DNA of 64,000 bases from Perna viridis. Its lineage: Eukaryota. A model generated the notes under the pieces. That model did no database searches, had not been told where the DNA came from, and was given only the letters and a program-made list of their open reading frames with translations. The stretch lies in contig CM074519.1 in the NCBI GenBank assembly GCA_037379345.1, positions 35,056,103 to 35,120,102 on the forward strand, read 5' to 3'. Shown piece after piece: positions 12,007 through 46,632 of the stretch (its first letter is position 1; each line of letters starts with the position of its first letter). Both the position numbers and the translations under genes were made by a program.

Positions 12007-12147
12007 CTCACTGAGTAAATCTCTAGAATCAGTACTCCTACGGGGGCTATTGATTTTGTGTGGTTCTGTAAACTCCCCACTAGAACTGGGTTCCACCGAC
12101 TCTTCACTCTGTCTCAGTCTTGGGGAAGGCAATGGCAATGGTCGATG
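12007..12147 (-). CDS. 141-nt internal coding exon (HRPLPLPSPRLRQSEESVEPSSSGEFTEPHKINSPRRSTDSRDLLSE), phase 0-0
   Basis: tattttttattgcag|CAT...GAG|gtaaaa. GC-richer than the flanks, with protein-like Ser/Pro/Glu composition; it is the real part of ORF 11866..12153. Confidence 0.88.
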
Positions 12148-13598
12148 CTGCAATAAAAAAATAGTAATGTCATAATGAATTCTGTCTCAATATAGGCAAA
12201 TACAGTATCAATAAGCAATGCTGAAATAGAAGTAGGAACTTTAAATTGTCAAATTTAGCTATGCCTCGGTCTTTGAAAAGGCAATAAAAGTGGTCCAGGC
12301 TGCAATATAAAATGAGAAATGTCAAAACCAATAACACTTTAGTCTCTGAGGAAACAATGGTAGTGGTCAATACTGCCCTATTAGCAAAACAGAAACTCTG
12401 ATATCTTATGTGCATGAAGTAACCTTACTCCATACATGTGTACATAATTCATGAAACCAAAAGATAAATAAATGAGTGTGTGAAAATCATCCATAGTAAA
12501 GAGCTTATGTGCCAAAAACAAAACAAAACTCACATAAGTAATAAAATGAACTTCAACTGTCTTCAATGTACCAATACAAAAGTATCAGAGGTCCTTCTCA
12601 CAAAAAAATGTAAGAGTAAAATTAGTCATAAGTAATGATGACATCACAATACTTTGATCAACTATGACACAATAACTTACCGCTACTTTTACACTTAATT
12701 TTTTTGTGTGAAAAGGACCAAAATACAGATGACAGACAAAGAATGACATGCGGCCAATATAAATGGATACATTAAAAGTATGCTGAGATTATAATTTCAG
12801 TCCACCTGTATCAAATCCAACCTAGAACCCAGTGAGAAAAATGAATTTTCAGTTTTCATTTCAGCCTCATATCTTTGGAATTCCTTGAACTTTAACATGA
12901 CTCTATCCATAATTACTAAAAATATGTTCTCAGTGAAATGTATATATACACTTGTCTTCATCCAAAACCATCCTTGTTTATACAAAATAAATTGATAAAT
13001 TCCTGATAAAATTCTAAGTGTAACTAATGGAGAAAAAGATTATTGTTATAAATTCACAGATCGCTGTTTTATTGTTCCAATAAAATATAAAATATCATTC
13101 CTTATGGGACACGTGCTTCCAATATTTATTTCATTTGAAAACAATACACTCCCATGGGACACACAAAACAAACACTATAACTATATCAAACTGCTGGGCT
13201 TATGGATAATAACCCCAACTATAAAACACACTATTAGCAACTTTTTACAGTTCTAAATTACCCTGAATAGCCTAATATAACATTAAAATGGATGTTTTTT
13301 AATTCTCTATGGAAATGAAAAACATGAAAAAACACCAAAATTCAAATTAACACCTGCAGACAAAATTAACAATTTAATGACCTCCAAATGAGAAAATTAA
13401 TTATTCAAAGTGAATGACAGAAAACAAATGAAAATGAATAATGAACAGACTGTAAAAACAGCACACAGGTTGCAGCATCTGTCAACTAACTAATGATTAA
13501 AAATTAATATAAAGTCAAACACCAACATGTGCTTGACTTTGATATTATTAATGATAAGGTTTTATATACTAGCAAATAAAAAATTCAATGTTCTTATG

Positions 13599-13730
13599 CG
13601 AGATCAGAGAGGGATAGTTCGAAATCAGAGAGGGATAGTTCGAGATCAGAGAGGGATAGAGATCAGAGGGAGATCAGAGAGGGATAGAGATCAGAGAGGG
13701 ATAGTTCGAGATCAGAGAGGGATAGTTCGA
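13599..13730. repeat. Purine-rich minisatellite, 21-bp unit CGAGATCAGAGAGGGATAGTT with truncated variants (~7 copies)
   Basis: Directly visible; explains the RDQRGIV repeats in ORF 13527..13739. Confidence 0.95.
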
Positions 13731-13938
13731 AAGGTTTAATGGACTAATGGTCCATCTTAACATCATAAAGAAATTGATAGATAACTTAAAAACTCTACAC
13801 TGAAGTACCAATGACTTAGATTCCTCAATATTGGGTTGAAAATATGATATTTATTTCTTATCAATGAATGAACAACACTCGAATATGCATTACTGCACTC
13901 TGACCCAACAGACAGGGTTTGAAGGACTCATCACTTAC

Positions 13939-13950
13939 CAAGGCCCAAAC
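13939..13950 (-). CDS. Possible 12-nt microexon (VWAL), phase 0-0
   Basis: ggtttcttag|GTTTGGGCCTTG|gtaagtga. Consensus donor, but the pyrimidine tract is short with a competing AG, and the site lies in a small local duplication. Confidence 0.25.
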
Positions 13951-14145
13951 CTAAGAAACCTTTACAAAGGGTTTGATGGACTCCAAGGTAATTCATTTTA
14001 TTAATTTCTAAATAATCTCTTAAAGTCTAAGAGCAGATCATCTGACTTACATGTAATAGTATCAGTTAGTTTAAATGCTCTTATAGAGGGTATGAACCCA
14101 ATCCAGCCCCTACCCTAATTCCCAATAACTGGTATGGTACCTGGA

Positions 14146-14292
14146 TACTGTCTATAGTTAACAACCCCTGAATAAAAAGACCCCTGCTACACTACACAGT
14201 ACAACCTGTCTATAACAATTTCTGAATAAACAGACAAATGTTACACTACACAGTAAAACCTGTCTATAACAATCCCTGAATAAAGGGGACAC
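14146..14292. repeat. 54-bp tandem repeat (~2.7 copies) containing CAGTAAAACCTGTCTATAAC
   Basis: CTGAATAAA recurs at 14168, 14222 and 14276. Confidence 0.85.
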
Positions 14293-14819
14293 CCATTCTG
14301 AATCCTCATATAATTTTAAAATCCATTATTTTTTTAACCTTCCATTTTACACACACAATATTTACAGTCCAAAAGGAGTTTGATTCAGTTTAATAGACAT
14401 GTAGAAAACATCTTTTCTAACTGCCGATAGTACAACACAGTTAAATCCCAATGAAAAGTAAAATGTATTGACCAATTTCCCTATGCAATTATCTGAAGTT
14501 ACCCAAGACAGTTTTATTATAGAGAATTACAGACAAATAAGCATCCAGTGTTCCCATCAAGCTTTTTATCAAACTATATAAGACCTTAATTACACCAATA
14601 TTCCCAACAACTGCCTTTAATGATAGCACAGCCTTGGAGATAATTTCTATCTTTTTTATCATGGTTCCTGAAAATTATTCGTAATGACTGACAAAGAATC
14701 GTAGAAATTACTAGTTACGACAAGGTTTGTGATTATCAGCCCTTCATTGACGTTCTAACGATAGGTTGGCACAACAAAGGTCATATTAACGGAGGAAAAC
14801 CTTACAAACTAGTACTTAC

Positions 14820-14966
14820 CGTGTACAAACTACTTGTTATCACTTTATACGGCCCAATTAGGTCGTGTTATTTGATTCAATCCAGAGAACTTTCTCTGGT
14901 CACGTTATAGTATGGGCGTTAGTACTAAGAACAGATTATTGGGCTTCTTAGAGTGTAGATTGGCAT
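14820..14966 (-). other. Candidate non-coding or poison exon
   Basis: aataatttctgcag|ATGCC...TACACG|gtaagta; 147 nt with a perfect donor, CpG-retaining, and stops in all three frames. Confidence 0.35.
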
Positions 14967-15050
14967 CTGCAGAAATTATTTCCATTTCAAAAAATGAATT
15001 ATCATACATTCTATATAAAACAGAGAAACATAAAAAATAAGAATTAATAC

Positions 15051-15068
15051 CATCGGTGCGAGGCCCGA
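15051..15068 (-). CDS. Candidate 18-nt exon (SGLAPM) or first exon ending exactly in ATG
   Basis: ttttttaacgtccttgactacccag|TCGGGCCTCGCACCGATG|gtatta; 3 CpGs in 18 nt; phase-0 end compatible with the 12147 acceptor. Confidence 0.4.
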
Positions 15069-18000
15069 CTGGGTAGTCAAGGACGTTAAAAAACCCCTTG
15101 GTAGTAATAAGAATTTTATTCAGAAGGAGCTGATAGTTGCTATGACATTATTGATACTATGACTTCTTTTGTCAGGTGAAACCAAGAGTTTGTCATCTTT
15201 TTCTTTTTTACTCCATGTTTTATGTCAAAACCTAAATATATGCAAAATAAAACTTAACTCATACGTCTAAATTCCTTTTCTCTCTAACAAAACATCATTG
15301 GGGCAATACTTCAATGTTTCAGTCAATCAAATTTAATATTTGTCATTTTAACATGTTTACTACATGTATGATAATTAGCTTTTTTGTATCTGTACTTAAA
15401 ATAAGAGATCACTACCCTTTCACCGAATTAAATTGTCTAACAGAGTACAAGCAATAACTCATGAGCTAATTACAACTGTCTTCATCAAGTGTTACTTTAG
15501 TTGACTTCAATGAACTTGTGCTAAGGCAGGGTTAACATAAAGAAAATAAAGTATTGTCACGCTTCCATTATTTAATTTTCAACTAACAACAAGTCAAGGA
15601 AGAATAGTAAAGACCTGGTAGGATGTGCCTTATTACCAATTTACACAATATTAAGATAATATTGGAGCCACATGCAATGTCCTTAAAAAGAGTAATTGGG
15701 GATGTATAACCTCTCTAAGGACAATTATAGCGTACACAATGATGATACTCATGGAATAGCATTATATCAATTTTTAAAATATAATTAGCTGATTTATACC
15801 TTAAGATGGTTAATTGGACAGTTGGATACAGATTTTTAATACCTATTCTCTTTTCATCCAGTTAACTACATCAAGCAGTTCATTAGGTGATTGTCATTAA
15901 ACAATCCAACTCTTTCTCCTGAACATGATCATTTTATGCGCTATAACTGTTAGAAGTCTTGAAGTTACCATCATCACAGTATCACGAAGCTGACATAAGT
16001 GTCTATGGTAATTAGACATAATAAACTTCAATGTTAACAATTGATAGCCTTAAATCTGACCCGAGTGTAGCAAATTTACTTGGGTTTCCAACTAAGTCTG
16101 CGTCAGTCCCAGAGTGCTGGATACTTCCGTAACATTACAATATGATATTGATCACGATCACGGCTTGATATTGATCAAGATTTTATTTGTGTCAGTCATG
16201 CAAACTAATCCATTCAACAGAAGCCTGCCAATTTATAGCTGAAATTACTGCAAATAAAATGACTTAAGGAAACTATTACAGTGCGACAATGGAGGAAAAC
16301 ATTTTGTGATTAAAAAAAAGAATTGGTTTGAGGACATAAAAACGATTTTCAATAAAGAATGTCTCTGAGCCATCAAGAAATAATAAAATAACAGCCTAAG
16401 GAGTTACATGTCAAGCATAATGTTCTTCACAGTAATAACCTGTAAAGACTTCATTTGTTGTTTAAAAATTACTGCAGAAAAACCACAGAGGACACTTTAC
16501 AACAATTATAAATACATGTACATAGTAAGGCTGTGGCAAGATAGTAAGCTGAAATTTATGAATTCATGAAATCATTATAACTGTAATTCTGATGGAGTTT
16601 TATCTAGACAATGACTGAATGATTGTTGGGGTTTAACATCTGAGTAGCAATATTTCAACTATATTCAGACCATTTATCAAGACAATTTGGTCAACAATTT
16701 ACTGAGTTAATGTTTATTTATGTACATGAGTAAGGAAAAATAAAAAATTGCCTTCTTAAATACAGGAAAATCATTTGTGATCAACATCTCAAAGGAAGTC
16801 CAACAGTTCTGGTTATAAACACTATATGAAAGAAACTTCCAAGCCTCAGGCCAAACCAATATAATGAATGATGATGATTGGGGGGTTATACAGTCTTGAC
16901 TATCGTATCTCCGACCACTGATACCTTGAATTTTCGCCACAACACTATACATAGTGATCACATGAGTTTACTAACTACCCTTACTCTCACCAAGACCTAA
17001 TGACATTATTTTACTCAGCCACGTACAACACAATATAGATATCTGATAAACAGTCAGTTTAAGCTCATCAAATAACAATTTTAATTAGTACAAAATTTTC
17101 TGATACATGCTCAATTGCACAAAAGTCAAATATCAGTTGCTAATATAATCTATCTTATTACTTCAGCAAATTTCACTACGACTTTATTCAATTATACAAT
17201 CATAGATGAGATTCCATATTTATTAGAAGCTCGGTGGGTTTATTACACAGCAGGCAATAGTATTCATACATCCTATGGCATGAAAAAACCAGTTTCTAAT
17301 TTCCGTTTGATTCTGGTCCTTGTTTGTGGCGCAGTAGGATATTTATGCAAATTTTTAACATTAATATTATCATGGAGATTTTTTAATACAGGCTCAATCA
17401 TCAAAAGAATGGTGACTTAACCAAGGCCATAAAGTCATTAATACATCTCTTTACTACAAAGTTAGAAATTTTCACACTTAATTTATTTCTTTAATCTGGG
17501 ACTAATATTCCTTTAGCCCTATGACAGCCATTTTCATCTCTAGAGCAAAAATGTCGGGAGCCATTAAAACTAAAATCTTGTTTTCTTTATGATCACCCTA
17601 TAACCTAATCAAATGCATGAGTAGATTTCTGTCGTCATCGTAACACATTAGTCCACGTTTCTGTCCTACTGGAATAAAGGTTTCCCCGTGGATGATTTCA
17701 GGGAAATTATTGTCAAATCTGATTGTTGCAGTACGGATTGCAAGCCCTAATGGCTTTATTCTGGAATTAAGGAAACCACAAATGAATGTCACGCACATTA
17801 AAGGATCAACTCCATATTTGTAAATGAGAAAAAATTTACCTAACACAATTGTTGGAAAAACATCATTCAGTACATGAAAACTTTTGAAGAAAAGGCAAAA
17901 AAATACCTGACAAGTAGTGGAAATTACCTTGCTTACAACAATTTTAAAATTGCAGTGTTGAATTTATTGCAAAATATGGGAGTGTATTAAATTGCCATTA

Positions 18001-18300: not shown

Positions 18301-21002
18301 TTCTTTTTATAATTTAAAATAACACAAATAAGGCCTCTCTGTAAAAATGAGATATCAAGAAAACCAACAGCCAAGTATCAAGATATGAATCTGATCAGAG
18401 AGAAATTGTTATACCTCTCCTACATTATCAAGTTAACATGCATTAAGTTTCATCAACATTTAAGCATTCCATTGTATGTAGTAACTTAGATGCCAGTTCA
18501 GGATAGTTTGTTGTTTACATAGACACTATGATTATCTCTGGTTATCCATAGTTTATATCCAGTTTATCCCCCCTCAAAATAAAATGATCTTATGTTACCA
18601 CCTGCAAGTAATTTATTCTGCTTGTACAGCTACATGTAATAACAAACTAGGCAGCAGAAGTAAGAAGATTCAGAACATGTTTATTGTTAGTGACCTGATC
18701 AATACCCATTAAAGGTATATCCAAATATCCCCTATTGCAAAAATCTTCAAAAAGCTTAACAAGATATTGCTTCTATCAAATTTGCTTCAGACCTGACAGC
18801 ACTTAACAAGTGTATTCATTCTATAAATTTGAAACTCATACAGGGAAACTTTCAATACTACATCTCATATCCCAAATCTGATTTCCAAACCTTAATGCAG
18901 ACTTGAACCAAATATAGAAGCCATGACAGTAAGTTTCTAATCAGATAAAGCCAGAAAATGCATCCTGAATTCAAACTATCTCCACGGATTATGCAATTTA
19001 AAGGGAATTGAAAAACTCATAGAAAATAGAAATTGTCAAATCAATTTCCAAATGAAATTGAATTTTCTGGATTTAACATGCCAAGGAGCTTGCAGATCTA
19101 TTAATGATTATCCATGAAAATTGTTCAAAAGCCATCTTTTTTAGTTACCATGACAACCAAGAAAGAAGACGGAAATTGATCTTTTTAAAATCATCAACTC
19201 CTTAAAACGAATCAAGGTTTGTCAATCTCCATCGAGTCTCCTCCGCATAATTTCAACATCTAAATTGCAAATGTAATAAAAATTTAAATAACATTGATAT
19301 TTTTATACTGATGTTATCCCTCCGACTGCAACACACTTTGCAGCACTGTCATAATCATGACATCACAGCATATGCTAAGATCCTATTTAAACTGCCTATA
19401 GAATTTAAAGGGCTCGCCATGCTATTAGAGACATAATCAGATCACTAGGCAGCAAATACCCAGACAGTAATAATTTTTACATTATTTATGGCTAATAAAG
19501 CAAGCCTTATAACATATAACAGCTCTGGGGACAGGAAAATCAATATTTTCCAGGAACAGTAAGCCTATAATGACAGTCTTTATAGCACATAGCAATTATC
19601 TATAGGGAAATATCATATAGCAGTTCTACAATGTTGTACAGGTGCAATTCTCTACAAATACATTGTTTGACAAGGAGCGTACATGTACATGTATGGAAAT
19701 ACAGAAAAAGGGTATTTACCATTGTACTGTGAGTACAAATAATGTCATAGATAGTGAGAGTTTTTCATCAATTTCCATGGGACTGTAATCACAATGAATA
19801 ATACTCTCTATGGATTTTCAATATTTCTTTTAATATAAATGTATTATTAGAATATTTTACACTCATACTTTGGATTAAGCAGTGTACAAAAATCTACTTT
19901 GGATTGTACCCAGAAAATGGGCAACATTAGGGATAAAAGTTTTGATTTGTTATACCTTCAAGAGCATGCAAGAATGGTTTTGCCTTCCATTAAGTCTAAA
20001 CATCAACCCCTGAGTGTCAATTTATATCACAAATGTGTATTTCTACTTGTGTATTAGTGTTTTATTAGTGCCTTCACTTAAACCTATTTTTCTCACAGGT
20101 AAAGCCCCCAGCAGGAAACAGAGAACAAAGTGACAAATATTTATACATCATTGTCTGCCTTTAAGTCAACCGTTCCATTTTAACCAACAATACAACTCGT
20201 ACTAAGTCCACTTGTTCGTTGTCCCCGTATCTGTGCATTGTATTCCTATTCTATCTCGTAGACCCTTGCTGTAAATCACTGATTCGGTCTTACTAAAAAG
20301 TCAGACTACTTCAAACAAACTAAGCACCAAGCTCAACAAGGGACTACGGACTCGAGTGACTGTCGTAATATTTTTAATGAAGTTCTTGACAACCTTCTAT
20401 TTATCAATACTCCACTACTTGAAATGATCAGAGCTTATGAAATTTTGTCACCTAAATATTCATCAAATGTCACAATCTAAATATGCAATATTTGTTCAGC
20501 ACCGATATAGAATATTGTCGTGTTTGTCTATCATACTTACAGAACAATCGAGTTGAGAGTTTTATTAGACTGCGGGTGGTATTTGGGTATAATCAACGCT
20601 CAAGAGCCTCTTCTTGGTTTCTAGAAGTAAGAGGATCACTAATGGTGTATGGCGGATATAAATTATATACATTCTGCTGGGACTATGCCCTGTTACTATT
20701 TTAAGGAATTTTAAGAGCAGCATTAGCGTATCACTTCCCTCCGTGAGTCTGATTTTATCACGAAAAAAAAGACACAATAAGGCAATTGACCTATTTAGTA
20801 TTATTTCAATGAAGCAGGGTTTTACACCAGCAGAATTATTGAGCTTTGTCGATCTTGTATTTTTTGTTCCTTGAATTAACACTATACATTCAAGATAATT
20901 TTTTCATATGATACAATATCTCTTATTATTACATATTCAGTGCAAAAGTAAGAAAAGGATAAAAGGATAGAAAGGTTAGATCAACATACCATACTCAAAA
21001 AG

Positions 21003-21620: not shown

Positions 21621-22492
21621 TATTTACATTACAATTGCATTTACAATAAAAATCTTTTTTTAACTAATTGATGAATTCCATAATGAAACTTAATTAAAAA
21701 ATAATTACAGTAAACATGGCTGCAAACGCTGAAGGTTGAAAAAAAGATACTTAATGAAAATTACTTTCAAAAATCTTCTTATCAAATTACAGCTTTATTT
21801 CAGTAGGATGTAGCAAAAACTTACATGTCTATACATTTAAGAGTATTATACATGTAAAAAGTTGAAAAATTTGGACTTTTTGTCAAGAAATGCTAATTAC
21901 CTCAATAAAAGCTGTAAAATCTCCATTAAATATTCACAATCTCCTTTTTAAAATTCACTAAAGGTAGCTTATTTGAACCTCAAAATAATTCAATGCTAAG
22001 TCACACTGAATAGTTAATATACTGCCCCACCAATTTAAAATGAACACTTTATCACAGGTACTGAAAGAGATGAGCACTTCACAGAATTAATGTGTCTAAA
22101 ATACATCCCAACTAAATTAATATGAACATTTGATCAGAGCTATTGAAAGAGTTGAACACTTCACAGAATTAATATCTATTACATAACCATGAAGGTCATC
22201 AGAAAAGTCAAATTGTATCTGATGACGCTAACTGTAGTTGCATCAAATTTGATCAGTATGAACTTGAGACTCCTACAGATAACGATATCTAAATTGTGAA
22301 ATTTATCTCTTAAATTTACAAATTTAAACCTTATTTATTTTCTTTTTTTTTAATCAAAAATAAAGAAATTTGAAACAAAATGATGTGGGTTTTTTTTTTT
22401 GCCAATTCAGATAAATGAAATGGCATTTGTAATGTATATGTATGCAGATCTAGATATAAAGAAATAAATTCATCTACAAGACATAAGTTTAT

Positions 22493-23440
22493 GGACAACT
22501 CATTAAACAGTTAAATCTCTATCAACTTCTTCAGCAGAATATTCCCAGAAAACTCATCAAGCAAGTAATTCTGGGACAACTCATCATGCAGTTAATTCTG
22601 CAGGGACAACTCATCAAGCAGGTACTTCTACAGGAACAACTCATTAAACAGGTTATTCGGGGACAACTCATCAAGCAGGTAATTCTAGGACAACTCATCA
22701 AGTATTTAATACTGGGACAATTGTCAAGTATTTAATACTTGGACAACTGTCAAGCAGGTAATTCTGGGACAACTCATCATGCAGTTAATTCTGCAGGGAC
22801 AACTAATTGAATAGGTAGTTTATGGAGTACTCATCAAGCAGGTAATTCTAGGACAACTCATCAAGCATTTAATACAGAGAAAATTGTCAAGCAGGTAATT
22901 CTGGGACAACTCATCAAGCAGGTAATTCTGGGACAATTCATTAAGTGGTTAATTCTGGTACAGCAAGTCATGCAAGAACTCTAGAAAAAACATTTGATAA
23001 ACCAGAAATTATAGGACAATTCATCAAACTGAAAACCCACCAACAATTCAACATTCTGCCACTGCTGCAGCAATCTGAGATGTATCCATAAGAATTGTAT
23101 CATCAGACAGTAAATCCTAAGACAATCATCAGCAGTGAATTTTGTATCAACTCAGAGGGCAGATAATTTTGCAATAATTCTGCAACAACTCATCAACTTT
23201 AGTGACAGGTCATCAAACATGAACATTTGTGACCAATCATCAATGAACATAGCTTTGAAGACAAATCTACAGAATGATAAATTCTGGGACAAATCATCAA
23301 GAAGTAAATTTCTACATGAATCATCTTTTACAAATCATCAACCAGTCAATTTCGTAACAAATCATCAAGCAATTACCTCTTGGACAAATCAACAAGCGGT
23401 AAATTCTGATACAAATCATAAAGCGTGAAATTATAGGACA
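22493..23440. repeat. 27-bp minisatellite GGACAACTCATCAAGCAGGTAATTCTR; homogeneous core ~22545-22960 and decayed extension to ~23440
   Basis: About 15 well-preserved head-to-tail copies, then ACAAATCATCAA-type relics. Confidence 0.95.
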
Positions 23441-24471
23441 GTATAGATAAAAAAAAAAAGCAGCAAAGATAATATGGTGAAAATACCCAGAAAAAATATG
23501 TCCAAGAGTTATATTCGAATTGCATAATTATAACCTTTATACTATCACAATCCTTACATATTAATGTATTGTAGTGTGTGAACTTCATATTTATTTAGGT
23601 TTATATGGATAGATTCAGGTTCCTTATGATTAGTAAACAATAAAACATTCAATAAAATACAAATCCCAAACTAACCAGTACATCACTGGTCATCTCCAAA
23701 AAGGATGAATCAGTGGCTGCCTGAAGACAACACAGAGAAATGAAATTTACTTAACAAGATACTTTTTTACAAATGGAACTTTCTTCTTCAAAAATTTTAA
23801 ACAGAAAATTCCATGTATAAAAAATTCAAAATAAAAAAAAAAACATTTCAGAACTACAGTGCATTGATATCCACAAAAACAAATTCTTACACAATATGTA
23901 TCTCTTCTAGATTTATTCAAGTTTTTAAAGTATGAAATCTGTCGATGTTTTATCAAAATGTGAATACAAATTTTATTAGACATAAAATTTACATCAATGC
24001 ATTCTAAAAAATTATTTCAACATACCTTTTAAAATGTTGAAAACCATAATCCAGTAAATTTAATGTAAAATATATTTGCATCCAAATAAAGATAATACTA
24101 ACTGAACAAAACTCAATAGTAGCAACACTATAAATACCACCACTTCACCTTAAATAAAACTTTAATGCACGTTGTTCCCAGCTTTACCGTAAAAAACAAT
24201 AACACATAACAAGATTATTAAAAATTCCTAGGTAAAACTTTTATCAGACACTAAACCACTTGAAACTGTATGATCATGGTCCTTTATTGTATTAAGTTTG
24301 GATACTACAAGTTTTTCTAAAGGAACTTGTCACCCCACGACCAACTGAGCTCGTAATGAAATTTATCGGTATCTAAAACACGATACTTGTGCTGAGGTAT
24401 TTTATCACCTTTTCACTGATACCAGGGTATAATTTCCCAATGATGACAGGCATTTATCAACCCTTCGTTAC

Positions 24472-24546
24472 CGGGAGTGAACAGTGAAAGCAATTTGGAC
24501 AGGACGTAACGATGTTCTGGAGTTTACACAAGGATCTCGTTGTCAT
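24472..24546 (-). CDS. Candidate alternative first coding exon, MTTRSLCKLQNIVTSCPNCFHCSLP (exon 24472-24563 including 17 nt of 5' UTR)
   Basis: Strong acceptor ttctttgttttttcag at 24564; ATG at 24546; 25 codons to a phase-0 donor CCG|gtaacg; lies in a CpG-retaining patch. Reading from the acceptor in phase 0 hits TGA, so it only works as a start exon. Confidence 0.55.
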
Positions 24547-26677
24547 CCAGAGAAGAAAGCCCACTGAAAAAACAAAGAATTAACATGTCTTTTGCATTGG
24601 GCATTCAACACCCGCCGTCTCTGTTGACATAAATATACGGCCACCTAGCTGTCGGAACAGACCTATGGAATGCTGAATAATATTGCACTGTTTCCCTAAT
24701 CTGAGCCGATTAAATGATCATGTTAAAAACAATTGACGGAACAGAATTGGAACGCAGGTGTAAACCAAATATGTGAACTGCATAGAGTCAATGGAATTGA
24801 GGATTACTGTCTTATTGAAGTGAATATCTCGGATCATCTTCCCTATTAATGTCAGAGACAAGGATTTGAAAAGGTTCTACGATTATTCAGCACAAAGTTT
24901 CAATGAAAAAAGTTGGTTATAACTTGGAAATAATGCTTAAGTACATTTCTACTAAAAACTGTCCTGACTAATGCTTTAACAAACATATGTCTTAACACAT
25001 CATTTAGTTGGTTTTTTTTTTAAAGTTTAGGGAATGTTCAAGTGTTTTCTTGTTTGAAAGTTAAACTGCATATAAGGGTGTTAACACTTCAACATTTACG
25101 CAAGCAAGTGCACAAATAGATCTTTTCTGTTGTAATTTTTGAAAGTCAATTTTATGATTTTCCAAACAAAAGTTATAAATCATTTCAAAACATACAGAAC
25201 ATATAGAGAGCAAGTTTAATCTTTTATACCATTAAATATTGTTAACAGAGGATTTTTGCAATCCGTTTTCTCAGTTTCAGCCACCAATCTACTTTTGCGC
25301 AGTTTCGAAGTCACAACCATTCCACAATATAAATTATGATATTTCTGACTGTTTTATTTTAACATTACAGGTCTTACAGAGAAAATTACAACTGCCAAAA
25401 ATATATCACAGTTTACAGAATAAAAATTTACACACTTATGGCTGTAAAATGTTCTTGAATTTTCAGAATAAGCAAAAAATTACAGGCCACTGAATCAGTA
25501 TCTGGGCATTCCATCTACCTCATCCCACCCATCTCCCAAAAAAACAAACACAAGGAGTTCTTAAACTATGATCATACATGCAACACTCTGATGTAATTAA
25601 ACAGAACTTTGTCTATTGACCAAGTACTTCTATTTATCTCTCAATCTGTATGTATCATTCGACTACTCATCACAAGATGGGAAGCTTATCAAGATTTAAT
25701 GAGTTATCTCCCCTGAGCCCTGATAAAACAAGTGATTAGACTGTCAAAATAGATAAAATCTTGTTACTACTGACAAACTTAGGCATAAAATTAACAAATG
25801 CAGTAGTAGGTCTCTGATGTGTTATTTTGTACTTGAGGGAAATTATAAACATCTCATATGGCTTTTTTATATTAATTAACATAAATGCAGATCATAAAAC
25901 AGGTGTGGGGAAAATTCAACAATACAATAATTACAAAGAATTGAGACAGATGATTATGACACTGAATTTTTCTTCCTAAAAAACAGCTTCAATCCTTGGT
26001 TGGTATTTCACTCTAATCCTATATCTTGCACAAATCAAAGGACAACACCAACAACCATTGAAGCAAACATAATCAATGATGAGAGAAGGACTGTGGAAAC
26101 AGAACTAAAAGATATAAACAAGATGTCAGTGAGGTAGAAAAAATGGCAAAAGATAGATCCAAGTTGAGATCCTATAGTTGCATAAAGCATCATGGATACA
26201 CCCAACCTACCTCTTTACCTTTGGATTTTAATCTGCAGAAGAAAATGTCAAAATTGGCAGCCCTCCTCTGATTGACAAATGAGACTCTAATAAAAACAGT
26301 GTTCTTGATTTCATCAAACAGACAGTCAGACAGAAAACTAAATAAAGAACTTGTTATACCAGGTAAAAATATAAACATTTTTTCCAACAGCTGTGTGAAA
26401 CTGTGTAAATCAATTACATTAGAGCATATGTAAGTAGGAAAGCCAGCTGTGACGCATAAGCATATTTACAAGATTCTTAACAGGAAAAAAAACTTTGATT
26501 TATACAAATAACATTTTTCTAAATAAAAATTGGGGAACATATTTCAGCATTTTTTTCTATAGCTCTCAAATCCTATTAATAACAAAATTAGCATTGATAT
26601 TTATACAAATATTACTTATTTAATGGCAGATTATTTTTTTGCAACATACTTGTCTTCATACTACAACAGCCTAGAAT

Positions 26678-27045
26678 TTAAGTAGCACTCCAGCTAAGAA
26701 TCATGCAAAATCTGAAAAAAAAGGCTACATATTTTCATTTTTGTAATTAAGTTGTTTTATGGGTCCATACTATGAAATGTGTAATTACTCATTCGAATCT
26801 GCCTGTTCTTAGGAGATAATCAACATTAAAAATTCAATAGATTCTATTGTATTTGAGTGTCATTTACAGAGTTATCTCTCTCAATTTTTAAATCTTAAGA
26901 GCATTCTGTATATTTTTTATCTCCTAAGAACACGTTAAATTCAAAATTAAATGTTTATTTCTGTTTACTATGGCAATTCAAATAAAATATCAAAAATAAA
27001 TTTTAACCAATGAATTGCATCATTCTTAGCTCGAGTGCTACTTAA
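26678..27045. mobile_element. TTAA-bounded TIR MITE, copy 1
   Basis: TTAAGTAGCACTCCAGCTAAGAATCATGCAA ... TTGCATCATTCTTAGCTCGAGTGCTACTTAA (29/31 inverted match); interior homologous to 41587-41989. Confidence 0.85.
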
Positions 27046-28503: not shown

Positions 28504-30801
28504 ATCTCATCATCAATAGAACTTTCCACCATCCTATGATATATACACACCATTATCCTGTCAAGTGATTTCTTGTTGATCAATGTTCTATCCATACCGG
28601 ACACGGAGATACTAAGACCTTAATTAATTCTCTCTGAGCTTAAGGTATCAATGAACAAGTAGGAAAAACTGACAGGGGAGATTACTTATATTCAATTTAT
28701 CAACTTTTCAAATCTGATTAAATTCTCCAAGGGTTTCAACAAGGATCAAGTCAAGAATTGCCTTCTTCACAAAATCTCTATATCCTCGACACTGCAGGGT
28801 TAATACTAGAGTATTGAATTCTTGGCGTCTGACTTAAACATTAGTATGATTCCAGGCAAAAATTGGACCTAAACACATCAAGGATTTATACACAATCAAG
28901 ACAATTTTATGACAGCTTGTGTAAATACCTCAGTTTCTAAAACACTTACTAAGGACACTGATTGAAGATTCTTAAAGCTTTAGACAGTGAAATTGGGGGA
29001 TTCTTCTCAATAAGTAGTTTAAGTCTTAATATCTCTATATTAAACTAGATTTTGACACATAAGATCAGATAATATCTATGTTTGGAGAGAAGAGTTTGTC
29101 TGACACCTGCAAATCACAAATAGTGGTCTTTCATCATAGGTCAAATCCAAGTACTAACATTTGGACACTGGTTATTGGTAGTGGCTAGTCTTCAAATGAT
29201 CTTCACAGTAGATATAAATGAAGCAATGTTATCATTGTGTTTTCATAGTATTTAAGTGTGCTACTAAATATTCAAATAAAATAACATCCAGAAAGTGAAT
29301 ACATGCAATTACAGACATACACTTTCTCATTTTTCTGACACATTTTAACTGCATTTTCTTACTGACACTGAATATTTCACATGGAACATTTATTCAAAGA
29401 AACAAGATAAGCAGATTTAATAATAGGTGTCTGATGATATTACAATAGTTTTAGTTCCATGAAAAATTTGTCAAAATTGCAAAAAAATAGTAAGGGCTAA
29501 ATAAACATGGGGAATCTAGTCTCTTTTTAAGTTGACAAAAGAAGTTTAGATGAGCTAATCCAGAAATACAAAATGGGGGAGGGAGTTTAAAACAATATTT
29601 GGACTTTTTTCACAAATATCAAGCACTTTTGAACAAAAGCCAGTTCCAACCATGGGAATCTGCATCCCTAGATCTCCAACTTGCTTGCCCAATAATACTT
29701 TCCAACTAGCCCAGAGTTGTTGGTCCAAGGATGCACAAAAATGACAGAGTAGAAACTATATAGTCTACAGTATGTACTTTATAAAACTGTTTATTGGAAT
29801 ACACAGATTAATTATAATGAAAGTAAATTAATTTCAAAACAAAAGCTAAAAGATTATGAAATACAACATACTTAGAAGTTAGTGTTGGCAACTTGATTAT
29901 GTGCATACTAAGAACAAGAAGCATTATCAAATTGAAACCAGCCAGGTTTCATTTTGGGAAATATTTCAGTACAATGCATATTATATTATGTAACTATATC
30001 ATGATTCAAAAAGAAGATAAAGGACTTCCGCATCAATTGTGACCAGCCCTTTCCTTGTTTGAGAGAGCTTTTGTGGCAAGCCCATACATGTACATGAATG
30101 CGTGCATGTTAATACAGTATGTAGTAGTCAATATACAGGTTTACAAACTGCTTTAAATGATACATTATTCAATAAGTACACTTTGTAAAATTCATGAAAG
30201 TCCATAAATTCTACAGTAAATACAGTATTTAATGTGTGCTATTGTCATTGTTATTTAGTCAGATTTTTTTATAAGTGAAATAATAAAAATCGTGCTAGAT
30301 TTTTGTTTACAAAAATTACTTAATTACTGTGATTGCAATCCTCTCACATTTAATCTTACATGTAGTTCCACATTTTACTGCATTTAATGCATATTCAATT
30401 TTTTTAACTTGATTCGAATTATTAATTGGATAGATTTCCAGTTACCTATTTGCTAATAGACATAGAGCTAACTGACATGTAAAAATTTCACAAGGAAGAG
30501 TCTTTCTTAGTTATATATAATACTGATATCATTATGGTGTATTAAAACATCATTTTCCTTCTACTCCATCATAAGAAATTCAAAAGTTAACACGATTGCC
30601 ATGCATTACAATGCAGTCTTAAAATTACATATAGTGGGATTAAAACACCCTCTGTGAATATGTAATTAGGCCTAGCATCTGTCAACAGCATTTCTACAAA
30701 TTATTCGAATTAACATAGTGGGATGCTAGTTGACACATCAATACTAAATCAATCTGTATTCAAGCCACGAGTTCAACTCGTCAAATAGTAAGACCTCTTA
30801 C

Positions 30802-30861
30802 CTGAGCTTTTATAGTTGGTTTTAGGAACTCATCTTTCTCCTTTAAGGCAGATTCGTCCAT
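30802..30861 (-). CDS. Candidate alternative first coding exon MDESALKEKDEFLKPTIKAQ (frame is open upstream to a possible acceptor giving exon 30802-30912)
   Basis: ATG at 30861, 20 codons, strong phase-0 donor CAG|gtaaga; protein-like composition; CpG-retaining neighbourhood 30.7-31.2 kb. Confidence 0.65.
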
Positions 30862-33800
30862 AGATTTGCAAATGTTTGAGTATAAAAATGTCACCTTCGA
30901 ATCAGATATCACCTGACATGGCCATTACGAGTCAATGTAAATGAATGTGAATTGAATGATCTGGTATCCTATTGATCCAGCCACGATATGAGCCCTGTGG
31001 ATTCACAGTTGATTGACTTAAACATCTCCAGCGAGATATCTATTTTATTTCTCCCAGTATCTGTCCAAGTTATCTTCATTTGCCATAATCACGTTTTTAT
31101 AAAGCTATCGTGAGGTGAATTGAATGTGAAGCAAATTATCACATAGAGTCGAGAAGCAGGATAACTGATACAATATGAATGATTATTCTCCATGGAGCTG
31201 GCAATATGTAGCCAAATCATGTCAGATTTCACTGATTCCTCAGTCAAAGCAAATTGAAATAAAATAATACATTAATGACATAGATAGTGACTTATCATTA
31301 TATCTTACCATTGTCAGTTTAATGAATCATTTATCTGGTGGTGAGAGGAGATTATAACTTAGGGGTGAGGAAGGAACTGAGGGAATTATCTTCAACAAAG
31401 ATAAATTGCTGTTTCCTAACACCTGCAAATCTAACCGAGATTTTTTTTATTTGTTTTTCCAATTTAATACTGAAAATCAATTAATTTTCGCAGACACTTT
31501 TTTTTCTCAATAAGGAGATACATCCATTTGTGTAACCATCTTATTTCATGATTAACAGTCTCTTTAAGATGTATTCAATTATAAAGGGATTTATTGGTGG
31601 CAATTAATTTCCATGGTCTTTTCTTGATCACAAATTTCGTTGCTCATGAAGAGCTATAGAGATCCCATGATTCTAATTCCTTTTGGAGGTTTACTTTAGG
31701 CAGGTTTGACTACACAAGATTTCATCCTAATACATTTAAAAGGAGTAAGCCTAACCTTATGAAATAACCTTTTTCCCACAAAAGTTTTATAATATTCATG
31801 TACTTAATCTTACCAGCTCACATTACCTGACAATTTTTTGTAATAACAAATACTTGTATAAATTGTCTCCTTTTACATCAAAAGCAGTGCATTCATGTTT
31901 GTGAAATCGATTTCCATGTTATTCCCATTTAAAATAGCTTAATTTAACATTGTCGCTATTTATTTTCAACTTGGAAAGGACGGCCATTGAAACCTGAATC
32001 TATGGAGCCCTTACATCAGATTTCCGCTCTTCCATTAGCCAACCAATTATAATAAAAGTTTAAATTAAGTGCTTGGTAAACAACAATATAAGTTAGGAGT
32101 CCTGACATTTTAATAAGCAAATACCCTTCTTTATTCCCTGCTATTTCCTCTGGAAAACCAGCTCTTCAGAGGAGAATCAAAACTAATGGCGATCAGCTGC
32201 TAATAGCTGAGAGTTTAATTGTATCCATCTAAATATGACTGCAAACTTTAATCAACATTGATTATTTTGAGAACTTCAAATAAATTAAAAACAAACGTTC
32301 TATGAAAGGTCTTTTATTGTATTCTGTAGAAGTAAAAGGTGTCTATTTCAAAACAAGTTTGTATTTATCTTACCATTATGCCAGGTGAATGGCAGAAATC
32401 AAAAGGAACAGACTTTGTAACTTTATTTTTTCGTGGCTTAATTGCATTTTTAACCAAAGAAGTCCAGCTGCACTACATGTGTATAGTCAGAGAAACCTTG
32501 AATAATGCTCACTTAAGGAATTACCTCAACTCCATACCAACTTAACATTATAGCCATCATATAAACAAAGTTATTCTAAGAGGAACTTGATGTCCTTCAG
32601 TCTTAAATCCCACAAAAGGGCATACCTATATCAAACTTGTAAAAATATATCAAAAGCTCATACATAGTTATGAGTAGTAGCAGAGTTAAATGTAAAAAAA
32701 ATTGTGGTCCAAAGGATGGACTGTAGGATCAGAGCATCTAAGCTGGATATAAAAACATAATGTAAATTGGAAAGGAAAGATAACAGAACTTGACACCTAA
32801 TTATTTTACCCATTAACAGATCTTGGTTGTATGCAAAAAAAACCTGTCTTTACATGTATTGTACCAGGGGTTACATTTAACCAACATTTTGGTTGATATC
32901 ATTTCCTTCCATTTGTGGTATTTTCTCACTGTTTTAAATATCTAATAAATCACCCATGTTATTAACTTACTCATACCAAACAGCAGGATTTTTCTCTTAA
33001 CCTTATGTCTTTGAGAAACCCTAATCCTTTTGTTCAGAGAGAAGTTAGATTAATCACAAGTATTTATCCACATTTCTCAAACTGAGCTTTCTCAGGTGCA
33101 CCTTATTGCAAATTTCAAAATCCATATCAATTTTTCTTCTGATTTTCCATTGCATCTGAGTCAAACCATTGATATTTTAAACCGCTTCAAAAGGAAAGCA
33201 TATTATGAACCTAAAATTAATATTACTGACAGATTACTCAATCTGGACCACAGACAATAGCCCACTGGGTAAATAACTTCTCAACCCAGCTATGTATTGT
33301 ATAAGATGTCAGGCAACTAAGAGATTTGACCCTCAACGAGGATTTCTCCGAATAATCCAATTCACTATGAACCATTTGTCATTTGTTCAGTAAAAACATA
33401 TTATGTCAACAAAATTACACAGTATTAAAGGAGCTGTTCTCCTTGAAAGACAGATAGAAAAAGAATTTAATCCTGAGATTATTAGCTAAGGTTCCATACA
33501 TGGTGAGGTTTAATTTAAAGTGTATGTATGAAATGTGAAATACCAGCTTTTCCCAGTTTTTATCAGAGAATAAATATGTAGACTAGTATAAAGTGTTTAG
33601 ACTCCTATCAACAATATGTACCCTCTGGCACTTCACATATCCATCCTCATGCCATACAGCAGGAAATTTTCATGGTTTTTTTTCAGTTTTTATGAGTTCC
33701 ACAGTTAATCATTAAATGTTAAAAAAAATATCTAAGATTAACTTGTCAATCTTAAAAATTGAATTACAGCTAATACCTCTATTTTGGAATATTTTCTAAT

Positions 33801-33884
33801 TTTAACACAGTCATCCCAGCAAATCACATTTCCTTTTTCCCCTACCAGAGCACCATATTTTATTAGCAACTCTGAAGGTGTTTC

Positions 33885-37130: not shown

Positions 37131-37139
37131 TAATATGAC

Positions 37140-40153: not shown

Positions 40154-41586
40154 TCTCCAATCATACTTAGTATCAAATCATTACAGAATACTCATACTCT
40201 TCAGGAAAACGTCAAGTTGTGTGGTATTGTCTGTACTTCATTTGATTCCATTCTTTCTAACTCCTACATCAAATGCTCAGTCTTTCATTTTCAAATTCAA
40301 CAAGTTGCCGAAGTGAATAATTTAAGAGATTCTCAAAAATCAATGGACAGCTATAGGACCACATCTAAATCTATACAAATCACCAAATAAATTACATCAC
40401 GAGAGCACATGCTCCGATGCATGCAATTATAGATTCAATTTATCTTATTAAACAAGGAACAAGCAAACATGTCCTTATATGGATCAATAACATGGCATTT
40501 GTCGAGCATTTGTTCTGTGCATGGTTGTGATTTGATAAAAACATGATTGCAATTATATACCTAGAATCTACTGAGAAATTAATTTCAATAAATGGTTTGT
40601 AAGCAACTGATGCTTATACAATTAACTGTAAATCTGCTTCCACAAACTCTAAAAAAACATAATAACTGTATTAAGACCTACACATTTTACAACCCTTTCG
40701 TCTGCTTTACATTAGCAGCACGCTGGTAATAAACAGCTGGAAAAAAAAACCATCCTCTCTTTCCATTTGTTTCAAACCAGTAAATGGAAAACAATGAAAA
40801 AATGATTGAAGCTGTAATAAATTTCTCACTTAAAATACAAATATTGCAACAAAACCTATTAAAACCATTGTGTTTTTTAAGCTATGTTAAATGCATGTTG
40901 AGACAGGAGGACAACAAACAGCTTCCATGCACATTTAGTACAGGTAAATCCATTTTGTAGCAGTTCATACAGCCATAATCTGATAATTCTGCTTCCTAAA
41001 TCTGAAGTAATCTCAATTTCATTCTTGGCAATTTTTCCTATTTTTCTATTCTTTTTGTAATATTACATATCTTTTAAACTCAAGTACAGTAACACAAAAT
41101 TCATAGACACAAAAACTTTGACATTACATCCAGACAATTTACTAGACATGCTCTGAGAGGCATGTCAATTGTTTATTATTTTTTACTTTTTTTTACCACA
41201 AAATGAATTATTCATCTCTTGTCAAACCAATTAATGCTCTAAATTATGTAGTAAACTTTTCTGATATAATTCAATTATGTACAGCTTTTATCATTGGGTA
41301 ATATACTTCAGAACTAAATTAAATTTCAATCCCTCAAGTTCATACTTTTATTGCATGGCATTTATATATGTACATGTCTTAATTTAGAAAGAGTTATAAT
41401 AGTGCCTTATTTTTGTTAAAATAAGTGTCTTGCATAGCTATGAAAAATGTTTATTTTTAATGACCAATAAAAATCCATTAGGATAAAATTATGTAAGTCT
41501 GGCGATTTGGCTAATTATTCATCAACTCAAAAGGTAATCTACTTTCAATTACATGTACATGTATACACAAACATGTTGTTTTCAAA

Positions 41587-41989
41587 TTAAGTAGTAGTCT
41601 TTGTACGAATCATGCAAATCTACAAAATGTGATACACCTCAAAAAAGGCTACATATTTTTATTCTTGTTATTAAGTTTCTTTATAGATCTATATGATGAA
41701 ACGAATAATTATTCATTCCAGTCTGTCTGCTCTTAGGTGATAATCAACATTGAAAATACAACAGTTTCTATTGTATTTTACTGTCATTTACAGAGTTATC
41801 TCCCTTAGGTATGAATTCCACAGTACATTCTATATAATTTTTATCTTCTAAAAGCACAGGTTACATGAAAAACCACATGTCAATTTCTGATTAGTACAAC
41901 AATTTAAACAATATATCAAAAATAAAAATATGTAGGCTTTCCAACCATGAATCACATTTTGCATGATTCTTAGGTGGAGTACTACTTAA
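41587..41989. mobile_element. TTAA-bounded TIR MITE, copy 2 (same family as 26678-27045)
   Basis: TTAAGTAGTAGTC...GAATCATGCAAA and TTTGCATGATTCTTAGGTGGAGTACTACTTAA; shared interior, e.g. AAAAAAGGCTACATATTTT, GATAATCAACATT, TGTCATTTACAGAGTTATCTC. Confidence 0.85.
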
Positions 41990-42099
41990 ATAGTAATGAA
42001 AGCAAACATGAGATAATAAGCAGAAATCACAATAAATCCCGATAAACAATAATTGTCTAGGGCAATATGAGTAGATATACTGTATGTTACTTCCTGCAT

Positions 42100-42739
42100 C
42101 TATACTCGGCGTTACATAAATAACATACTGTTAAAATTTGAATAAAAATATTTTCTGCGACTTTATTGACACCTACTGTCGTTTAAATTGTCTTAAATGA
42201 CTTGCTCATTCGTTTAGCCAAACGGCTTCTCCCTAAACATTGAATCGTTAAATTCCGGTCAGATTTTAATTCTCGGTGCCAATATTTACATTGTAAAAAG
42301 TCGGCCATGTTTACAGTGATCGGGTTGCTAGGATATGTTGTTTACGTTTAAATGGTTTGTCTAAAAACCGAAGAACCCAGAATGCATTTCAGCGTTATTT
42401 CGGATATCTCGGATTTATTTTACGCGAACAACGTACAATACCGAGAAGTTGATCAAGCAGACGATTGTCACCGGAGTTCGACGGGAACTTATGAACTTCG
42501 TTTGTAAACAAATCGTCCCGTAAAAACCAACATGGCGGATATTAGTATGGGATTTTCCCGTAAGGATTTGTTACGCATGATTTAAGCTAATAAGCAACTT
42601 GTTTAGGGAGAAGCTGTTTGGCTAAACGAATGAGCAAGTCATTTAAGACAATCTAAACGACGGTTGGTGTCAATAAAGTCGTAGAAAATATTTTTATTCA
42701 AATTTTAACAGTATGTTATTTATGTGACGCCGAGTATAG
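42100..42739. mobile_element. 640-bp foldback MITE with 140-bp TIRs
   Basis: 42100-42239 is the reverse complement of 42600-42739 with about 6 mismatches by eye; ends CTATACTCGGCG...CGCCGAGTATAG; CpG-rich non-coding interior. Confidence 0.93.
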
Positions 42740-45700
42740 TATTTAAGTAAATGTTAGGAGGCAAGGCAACTAACTTTATTTGTAATAATGTTTAGCTCCC
42801 ACATGCAACCTAAATAACATATTTGGAAGGTACAATGTACATGAACATTTATAATACATGTACTTAAAATTCCATACCTAAATGCCTTAAAAGTTAACAG
42901 GTAATTTGTCTAAAACCTGTTTGCTTTACATTTAACATTACATTAACCCCAATAATTCATTTCTCTAATAACAGTATAATTTCCACATCAATATTCAATC
43001 GTCTCCATTCAGCTCAATTCTATCTCCAGATCGGCAAGGCTAGAAACTCAATCTTTACTGTTGAACAAACTGAAGGTAATATGACAATGACTCAAGCCTA
43101 CTTATCAGCTCAATCACCTAAACTACTCAGCATGAAAGAGAAAACAAGACTTAGGGGGAATCTAATACACAAGAATCCTTGTCAACATACAGGTGAGATA
43201 GAACACCTGTTTATTTTGCATCAAATTAAGACAGGTAAAAAAAGCAATTTTAAACTCATGTGAAACTGACAACTACATTTTAACCATTTAAAAATGAATT
43301 AATAGTGAAATGAAAGAGATCTTTAGCCCATATGAAGTAACAGTGACACAACATATAAACATATACAAAATGTACATTTTAGAAAAGCATGTCCAACTAA
43401 AGTACTGAGATAATTAAACACTAACACACATATAAAATAAGGCCAAAAGAAAATGTAAATGAATACTGTACATTTTTATGAGCAAATTTACCTAGAAGTA
43501 AAATATTAAGAAATATTCAAATATTTTTCCTTCAAGTAATGGACAGTCTTTCCAATCCAGATTAATTTCAGCACCAGCTTGTTCTGTCTTTTTTCTGACC
43601 CAAAAAGATACATTTAAAAAAAAAAAGTTTTATTAAATTGGCTATCTAAAATAGAACTGGAAATACTGTGAGTGCAAAAATGAAATGAACTTCGATCATG
43701 TCACGCTTTATTTAGATTATCTCCCTTTTCCGATATTCAGGACAATAAATATATAAATATAATTCTTCAAGCACATCTACTTATGATGTCTGACCATCCA
43801 AACAATTTCATCATTGTTTCGCTGTCGAGGAGGAGTAGATTGCACTTATGAGAATTAAACATGTAAACCCTTTTGTAACCCCTACATGTACATTTTATTA
43901 TGCCAATAAATTAGTTGGTTTAGGACATTGCACTGTCAAGACATACATGTATGGACAGATGAACCATCAGACAGACAGGTTGGTTCCTATATACATGTAA
44001 CCCCCGACTTTGTTTGCAGGATTTATAATAAAAACATGCACTGCATTTAAAGGCAGGATAAGCTCATCATTTCTCTTTTCTGTGCTTAAAAGTCAAACTT
44101 CTGTAAAAAAAAATGTCTGAAAACATGAAGAAAAGAAGAGAAATAAGTTAATCAAAAACATTTTACCAAAATTTATATGATGTTTGGACAGGCAGACAAA
44201 CTACTAGATGTACATTTATATACCAATAAATGTCCATCAAAAGATGTTCTTATGAACAAGTACTATACAGCAGATGCATTCTATTGCTTGTTAAAATACC
44301 AAATCCGATTTAGATTTTATTTGGTGAATTCTGCAATCACTAAAGAATTATGGATGTCACATGATGTAAAAAAAAACCCAATACAGACTTAACCTTGAAA
44401 AAAAGTCCCTCTCACTGAGATGTGCATGTATGTTCAACACAAAAGAGTTATTTTGGAAGGACAATGTGTCCAATCACCACATAAGAATTCAACATTATTC
44501 ATGATGTAAATAGCTCAAGATGACCCACTTAATTAATGAGAAGATTCATATTACATACATACAACACCCTGAACCTAAATTTAGAGCAATCTGAAACGGT
44601 CCGTAAATTTCTACAAAGTTTTGGGTCTCTCTTGGCCCTTTAATCCTATGCAATCAGGGCCATAACCCTTACAATCAACCCTTCACTTATTTTTGGTATG
44701 GGTCCTTTTATTAAAATTCATCATAAAATACTCAAGTTTTGTACAAAACCAAGTGTCTATGACTTAAAACAACAATGCCATAGTGCCATGATAGTGGTGG
44801 TACAGAAAAAAAAACAATGTTATTATTTTCGTCTTTATTTACCTTCAATACCTTTAAACATTACTACACCATTGCACTACCATCAAAAGAGGAGTAAATA
44901 AAAACAATGCTCTTATTTTTGGGTTTTCTGGATACACTAAGAAGATAAACATTCACCTTTTTTTAACTCTCCCATACCTATAAAACTTTTCTTCACAACT
45001 CAACCCAGCTGTGTTGACATAATATGTGAATAATTTACATTACTAACATTATATTGCAGTTTTGGTGATTAATGGTAGGAGTCTTTTAAACAGGTGTCAG
45101 GTAGTTTAATATATTACCAAATTGTGTTATCACCCCTGATCCCTAACTCAGTCAAAATAGTTGAAATAAATTTTTAACAGAGACATGTCTTTCTCGTGTA
45201 AGGTGCAGATTAAATGCTATTAAACATGACAGGAGGAAATTCTATCTTATTTCAAGTCAAAGAATATTAGATAAAAACTCTACAAACCAATTAGTGCCTA
45301 TTTATTAACAATATATGCCAAAAATGAACACCTTCTGCATACATAGTAGACACACATCAATTAAATTTAACAAAATTATAAATAATAAAAGCTTATGACT
45401 TTCCACCCCTCCACGGTCAAAGGGGGTATACATCCACAAAATAACTTAACTAAATTATTGGATCCTCATTACCTACAAAGTTTCATGAAATTCTGTGCAG
45501 CAGTTCCAAAAGAATAGCACTTTACATAGGTGTGACATACAGACAGTAGGACAGAACAAACTAATGACTCCCCACTAAAGTAGGGTAGACATTTGTCAAA
45601 AGGGGGGAAATCAAATAGGTCTGTATGAATGACATGGCCACCTAAGTTTCAAGTACTTATACATAGTAAACAGGAAGTTAATGAGTAACCAAGACTATAG

Positions 45701-46536
45701 TGATTCTGAAGGCATTATACTGTACAACCAATCACAGTTCAGTCACATACATTACCAAACTTCAATATTAACAGGAAGGCTTCCCAAGTTTCAATTGATG
45801 AGTATTTACAATTTAATATTAACTGGTAACCAAAGGAAAATGTATGCCTGACTTACTGGCAAAACAAAAAAATCTGTGGGCAACGACTAACTAGTGATGC
45901 CCACGCTTTTAATCATGATACATAAGGAAAATACACATAGTCCCCAATAAACAGGAAGTTGTTGTACAATTTTTTCTAAAATATGGATCCAACCATATCC
46001 ATATGTGTTGAAATTTCAACCCACTATAATTATTGCTGAGAAAACTGTGACAGAAAAAATATTTACGAACAAAGCAGGGTAGGGATTGTACATTTAAGCA
46101 GATACAAAAATACATGTACATACACATCTACAAACAGCAACTAAACTTCATTTTTAAATATCTACTGGTAGACAGACTAGATGATTGGGGGATTTTAACT
46201 GCATGCACATGTAACTTGATATCTTTCTGGTCGGTGTTGCAGGGTTAGCACATGTGGATGGGGAACACAGCCTTCAGGATACCTGACCAGTACTCAGTCA
46301 AAAGTATGTCCTACTAGTGACTGGGTTACTGTGTTGGAACTCTGGACTACTCTGCACATGAGTCTGAGAGCTTTTCCCCCATTCACGAAAAATTATTTGA
46401 GACCTGAGTCGAAGTTAAAGCTCAATGTACTGGCTGGCCAAAAGAAAATGTTATTAACTGGATAAGTTTAGTTTATTCTATACACATTACATTATGTATC
46501 TAACAGAAAATTACATCATAAAAACAAAGGTCCTAC

Positions 46537-46632
46537 CTTTTTCACTTTTTTCTTGATGGAAGACTTGTGTTTATCTTTAGAAAGATTCTGGTCAGTCTTT
46601 TCACTAGGTTTGGTGCTGGCCTTGACAGAATT
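46537..46632 (-). CDS. 96-nt internal coding exon (NSVKASTKPSEKTDQNLSKDKHKSSIKKKVKK), phase 0-0
   Basis: gtctattgtttttatag|AAT...AAG|gtagga; 32 open codons, Lys/Ser-rich with a basic C-terminal cluster. Confidence 0.75.

Follow-up and report, generated by a model that had tools for sequence, protein, structure and literature searches.

The subject of this analysis is a 64,000-nucleotide stretch of the Perna viridis genome (assembly GCA_037379345.1, contig CM074519.1, positions 35,056,103 to 35,120,102; the window), and in particular a gene on its minus strand which, by protein comparison, is assigned to the AUTS2/FBRSL1/FBRS/tay family of a mytilid mussel. A preliminary description had read the 34-kb intron 2 of this gene (12148-46536) as a cassette of interchangeable first exons that all feed one shared exon. 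Our results show that the intron in all probability holds one conserved alternative coding exon (30802-30861, called exon 1b here), likely promoted internally and likely spliced to the acceptor at 12147 in this species as in other mussels. The identity of the gene, the path through exons 2, 3 and 4 in RNA of the species itself, the conservation of exon 1b and its junction with exon 3 in relatives are demonstrated. Exon 1b most likely is a real but ordinary alternative first exon and not part of a cassette; the trait is already known in the AUTS2 family.

Exon 1b and the AUTS2-family gene

The exon model was derived from tblastn searches with mussel homologues, and 100 kb of flanking DNA on either side of the window was also analysed (genome size 723 Mb). 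All exons lie on the minus strand. Exon 1 of the long isoform (74 codons) is located 4,522-4,743 bases past the right end of the window and is followed by exon 2 (46537-46632; 32 codons with a basic, Lys-rich end), the two matching the Mytilus protein P0002 with 69% and 85% identity. Exon 3 (12007-12147; 47 codons, phase 0 at both ends), which is shared by the isoforms and found in RNA contigs and raw reads, encodes a peptide with 91% identity to Mytilus. Further downstream are exon 4 (9429-9458; 10 codons), spliced to exon 3 in runs X13 and X18, exon 5 (4579-4605; 9 codons, boundaries read from the sequence), exon 6, which lies some 15.2 kb outside the left end of the window, and the remaining exons, which extend to about 32 kb on that side. 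In tblastn, exon 1, exons 3-6 and the exon encoding a His-Gln repeat are colinear.

Naming the gene by protein comparison, as the preliminary description had recommended, led to the AUTS2 family. The Pfam Auts2 domain (PF15336) was detected on two downstream exons, in two of the 8 segments scanned left of the window, with E-values of 2.6e-14 and 4.4e-13 (54.2 and 50.2 bits, at a cut-off of 23 bits). The last exon shares 81-82% identity with mussel AUTS2-like proteins and 37-50% with those of other bivalves and a chiton; judged by percent identity, the gene appears orthologous to the named mollusc members. A protein search with exon 3 matched five clusters, none from this species. The conserved N-terminal Regions 1-3 and the His-Gln repeat seem to be present in order, the regions being assigned by position and description from PMC7732068 and not by alignment to the human protein. 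According to that source, Regions 1 and 2 of human AUTS2 lie in exon 1 and Region 3 extends across exons 3-6.

The coding part of exon 1b comprises 20 codons with its own ATG, an in-frame stop upstream of it, an open frame and a phase-0 donor (CAG/GTAAGA) that is compatible with exon 3 and is the strongest in the intron. The exon is conserved and occurs as a single copy in the genome. Aligned without gaps, its peptide shares 9-10 identical residues of 18-20 with the N-termini of six mytilid homologues (P0001, P0021, P0028, P0031, P0032 and P0033), and none of 2000 shuffles attained any of the six scores. Among 518 ATG-to-GT phase-0 candidates in the intron it scores 46.5, against 16.0 for the runner-up. 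Met1, Asp2, Phe12, Lys14, Pro15 and Lys18 are invariant in all six homologue starts. The peptide had been described as acidic; its charge is in fact mixed, with five acidic residues and four Lys. A hydrophobic-Lys-x-acid word, which we take to resemble the SUMO consensus, is found in all six relatives, while the acid is replaced by Thr in this species.

The use of this exon in relatives was assessed on 75 retrieved homologues carrying the exon-6 motif, with 15 of 38 Mytilus cluster members listed. The exon-1 motif is present in 46 of them, and a private start is joined to exon 2 in two, to exon 3 in 10 and to exon 6 in 17. Six of the 10 starts joined to exon 3 are mytilid: five RefSeq models (XP_071178115/6, XP_076108914, XP_052072396, XP_063397157) from Mytilus edulis, M. 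galloprovincialis, M. californianus and M. trossulus, and P0001 from another mussel. In P0001, the homologous short start is joined directly to the exon-3 peptide, and this junction must be a spliced one, because the open reading frame (ORF) of 940 residues sits on a contig of 2,905 bases; a long form, P0035, falls in the same protein cluster. Judged from these protein models, exon 1b is spliced to exon 3 in relatives. The other four starts are Mercenaria models, in which an unrelated start of 185 residues uses the same junction. The claim of an internally started, shorter isoform joined to the 12147 exon is thus upheld for 30802, which is conserved and spliced in this way in other mussels.

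For RNA of P. viridis, eight of 24 runs were mapped, comprising one raw run (about 19% of its reads) and seven contig runs. Mapping was done at 92% likeness and is dominated by repeats; the joints considered are 15 of 44, with 560 loose ends standing outside this list. The splice from exon 2 (46537) to exon 3 (12147) is present in RNA contigs. In run X13, the upstream loose end of the contig matches, by eye, 29 of 30 letters at the 3' end of exon 2, and the downstream one corresponds to exon 4, so that the two flanking exons are indeed real and joined and the predicted long isoform with a basic Lys-rich segment, namely exon 2, is seen in RNA. Exon 3 lies within one contig in six of the seven contig runs and is covered by raw reads, whereas X7 holds no piece of it. 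The 471-474 bases that precede it in the contigs of X1, X3, X17 and X13 would correspond to exons 1 and 2 plus an untranslated region (UTR) of about 155 bases.

At exon 1b, an exact contig of 186 bases (30838-31023, depth 3.7) was found in X1 and X17, which are probably one data set, and the raw run X21 contributes about 2-3 reads' worth of bases (a few hundred) in two bins around the exon. The contig marks a putative 5' UTR (30862-31023, possibly extending to about 31070) with short upstream ORFs at 30925 and 30919; a possible TATA box (TATAAAA) is located at 31095-31101, a weak indication in DNA of 68% A+T, where this word is common. Several points weigh against the use of exon 1b as proposed. 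No joint from 30802 to 12147 is among those listed for this species, one further joint from four of the contig runs being unrelated; the contig ends 36 bases before the donor and seemingly derives from a single data set; other low-depth intronic contigs exist (21901-22100, 22612-22858 and 24331-24481), and the RefSeq X models are predictions. Because of these other intronic contigs, the 30838-31023 contig is supporting at best. Contig cover is absent at 20541 and 14820 in the contig runs and at 30212-31500 in four of them, but contig runs drop rare variants, and missing cover is therefore no evidence of absence.

These data also bear on two other readings of exon 1b. It might be a relic, inherited from the mytilid ancestor and no longer used here, with only the long form passing through exon 3. 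The sole path among the listed joints, exon 2 to exon 3, would fit, but the exon has kept its ATG, its open frame, its phase and a donor of top score. It is about as similar to the relatives' copies (45-55% identity) as these are to one another, and it is covered by a contig and a few raw reads. We therefore regard a relic as very improbable. Still more improbable is that transcripts start at a non-coding exon further upstream and that 30802 follows it as an internal exon. In favour of this reading, the relatives' models consist of protein only and the start site of exon 1b is a putative one, so that a further non-coding exon may lie upstream. However, no pyrimidine-rich acceptor was seen by eye directly upstream of the ATG, the contig extends 160 bases upstream of it, and a TATA-like word, although weak evidence, lies 240 bases upstream.

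With exon 1b as an alternative first exon, an internal promoter near 31.1 kb would give rise to a minor transcript, whose strong phase-0 donor would join exon 3 in frame. The resulting protein would exchange the first 106 residues (exons 1-2) for 20 others. It would lack the basic stretch at the N-terminus, the hydrophobic and conserved Region 2 and the Lys-rich exon 2; Region 3, the Auts2 domain and the His-Gln repeat would be retained. A likely effect would be that AUTS2 dose is regulated separately in each tissue or stage, with the loss of binding partners of Regions 1-2. It had also been suggested that the isoforms are targeted differently. This idea is weakened, since the predicted N-terminal nuclear localisation signal (NLS) is dispensable for nuclear localisation according to PMC5555464.

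The other proposed first exons

All five motifs of the preliminary description were located, exactly or within one base, yet as a set they do not exceed chance. Counting combinations of an ATG, an open frame and a phase-0 donor scoring at least 3, the intron holds 13 units, as compared to 11.3 ± 3.7 in 30 dinucleotide shuffles of the 34-kb sequence, and the antisense strand five. Donors scoring at least 4.5 number 16 in sense and 17 in antisense, and GTAAGTA words two and three, respectively. By an approximate matrix, the donors score 7.5 at 30802 (top of the 16), 6.4 at 14820, 3.4 at 24472, 0.5 at 20541 and -3.0 at 15051.

All sites had been placed in CpG-retaining patches. This applies to four of the five, which rank within the top 3-4.4% of 400-base windows, and not to 15051 (20%). 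The CpG-richest patch of the intron (42100-42741) is a young element of 640 bases, resembling a miniature inverted-repeat transposable element, with terminal inverted repeats of 140 bases and about 98% identity to its copies (40 scored of 2,628 first-look candidates). A promoter at this 42-kb CpG island was therefore rejected and, as the richest patch is a young transposon, CpG retention is not promoter-specific here.

The proposed Cys-rich first exon (24472-24546, minus strand; 25 codons, CCG/GTAACG) is unsupported as a coding exon. Its donor is moderate and the surrounding CpG patch is single-copy; its peptide has no homologous N-terminus, with scores of 7-9 against the starts joined to exon 3 that are no better than those of its own shuffles. 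The only contig at this site (X2, depth 2) crosses the donor unspliced, and raw reads are absent from the bins holding 24472 and 20541, a weak argument at such depth. The Met-only exon (ATG/GTATTA, 15051) was rejected, as it is part of a dispersed repeat of about 60 bases (15049-15109) found by genome search with 41 other matches (403 first-look candidates) and has a poor donor. Reads at this position come from other loci, all 16 raw reads differing at 15063 and 15070. Neither a Cys-rich nor a Met-only N-terminus is joined to exon 3 among the 75 classified homologues. On the same strand as the gene, the GTAAGTA following TCT at 20534-20541 is a weak donor without support in a single-copy CpG patch, whereas ACG/GTAAGTA at 14813-14820 is a strong donor in such a patch with no frame, and a candidate non-coding first exon. 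These four sites most likely represent chance or repeat DNA.

Variable first exons spliced to constant exons are found in UGT1A, the clustered protocadherins, PDE4/dunce and plectin. The mussel gene differs from them in having no first-exon array and one supported alternative at this acceptor; the 24472 peptide is unrelated to exon 1b, and the units are unrelated single sites and not a duplicated array of the UGT1A or protocadherin type. The appropriate comparison is with the alternative promoters of the AUTS2 family itself.

That exon 3 is fed by a cassette of at least three internal first exons (30802, 24472, 15051 and perhaps the non-coding 20541 and 14820) is thus very unlikely. At acceptor 12147 the donor of exon 2 is seen in RNA, while joints from 30802, 24472, 15051 or any of the five sites are absent among those listed. 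With 6 raw reads at 12046, RNA depth is low, and of the 38 members of the Mytilus cluster 23 fall outside the listing, which leaves room for further variants, and 24472, 20541 and 14820 do lie in single-copy CpG-retaining patches, the last with a strong donor. Zebrafish auts2a joins two first exons (1B and 1C) to one exon (PMC5555464). Against this stand unit counts that match those of shuffles, donor counts that match the antisense strand, the lack of a homologue for the 24472 peptide and of reads in its bin (weak), its donor crossed by an unspliced contig, and the repeat at 15051.

Further features of the region

Some RNA signals around the gene were recorded separately. Contigs are interrupted 3 bases ahead of exon 3 in X18 and roughly 29 bases inside exon 6 in X1 and X2. 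A second incoming exon or a third-position polymorphism would explain this equally well, and these breaks were not used. Just upstream of exon 3, a single-copy intronic contig of run X7 (12215-12470, depth 10.9) may represent a 5'-extended exon 3 or unspliced RNA. High-copy repeats at 11765-11830, 12570-12720 and 26677-27000 attract many RNA reads from other loci.

At L004:9234-9751, the 3' end of the His-Gln exon and its donor are repeated in eight tandem copies of 65 bases (92% matches), so that several near-identical CCA/GTAAGT donors follow the real one; a derivative array of 51 bases comes next. In Mytilus trossulus, edulis and galloprovincialis, a second gene (P0095, P0100-P0102) encodes a protein with Harbinger-type transposase domains (PF13613/PF13359) into which the AUTS2 exon-3 peptide (88% identity to the exon studied here) is built once or twice, an apparent exon capture. 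Intron 2 also contains a degenerate tandem repeat with long open frames on both strands (22487-23430). At 38-44 kb left of the window (L006-L005), broken frames, one of them with an aspartic-protease-like motif, suggest a decayed retrotransposon downstream of the gene.

Alternative starts in the AUTS2 family

The starts of this gene likely comprise a long one, an internal one in intron 2 and another further downstream. Exon 1b is already contained in RefSeq models of four Mytilus species, whose AUTS2-like isoforms resemble the present gene in combining a short N-terminus on the same exon 3 with a long form including exons 1-2. Their start has 18 residues as compared to 20 here, and they are database models that the papers we found do not describe; a literature search covering few subscription journals yielded no paper on mollusc AUTS2 isoforms.

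In vertebrates, many alternative promoters are reported for zebrafish auts2a, auts2b and fbrsl1 (PMC5555464) and internal start sites for mouse and human AUTS2 (PMC9008325). Exon 1B of zebrafish auts2a (isoform i2) has 16 codons, is joined to the third coding exon and replaces 166 N-terminal residues (PMC5555464). Like exon 1b it is a coding alternative first exon with a phase-0 donor, but no sequence likeness is visible by eye. The equivalence of the introns in zebrafish and mussel rests on exon order and residue counts without alignment (a loss of 166 and of 227 residues, and a length of 49 bases for exon 6; PMC5555464). Zebrafish exons 4-5 encode about 44 residues as compared to 19 in mussel, and exon 1B therefore likely enters at the equivalent of exon 3. 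Exon 1D of zebrafish auts2a and exon 1B of fbrsl1 are joined to exon 6, similar to the 17 of 75 mollusc homologues that begin just before the motif opening exon 6, and zebrafish auts2a exon 6, translated by eye, encodes this motif. First exons of this kind are non-coding in fish, whereas those in mollusc models are short and coding.

For the exon-6-joined start of Mytilus, no convincing coding match was found locally, the best being 4.8 kb left of the window with a donor score of -1.8. Within intron 5, two donors outscore all others (7.9 and 7.5) and coincide with or adjoin patches richer in CpG (window 4114 and 4200-5100; also L002, some 3.26 kb beyond the left end of the window). Both are candidates for the exon-6-joined first exon known in other molluscs, and no ATG stands in frame with either.

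The short isoforms of human and mouse AUTS2 are likewise N-terminally truncated and arise from internal starts, but these lie far downstream in exons 7-9 and lack a private N-terminal exon (PMC9008325). According to a preprint (10.1101/2023.05.04.539486), only the long form of mammalian AUTS2 binds PRC1; the short form it describes starts much further downstream.

A fresh point is that, in molluscs, the exons entered from internal starts seem to be the two to which zebrafish exons 1B and 1D are spliced. Starts in the intron before the third coding exon occur in mussels, a clam and zebrafish, and those before exon 6 in mussels, oysters, scallops, a clam, a chiton and zebrafish. Whether the three tiers (long, exon-3 start and exon-6 start) are an ancestral bilaterian trait is nevertheless doubtful. 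The first exons at shared positions have no common sequence, the introns concerned are the longest ones, in which promoters can arise repeatedly, and the oyster and scallop isoforms listed include no start like exon 1b, an argument against unbroken descent at intron 2.

With the gene model corrected, the long/short promoter logic of vertebrate AUTS2 is extended to molluscs. If the shared positions do not reflect ancestry, exon 1b marks an ordinary alternative promoter, present in Mytilus database models. If they do, the poorly understood N-terminal Regions 1-3 would be switchable modules, and a switch that removes Regions 1-2 or 1-3 would have persisted for more than 500 million years. Such an ancestry would also bear on the milder disease caused by variants in human exons 1-8 (PMC9008325).

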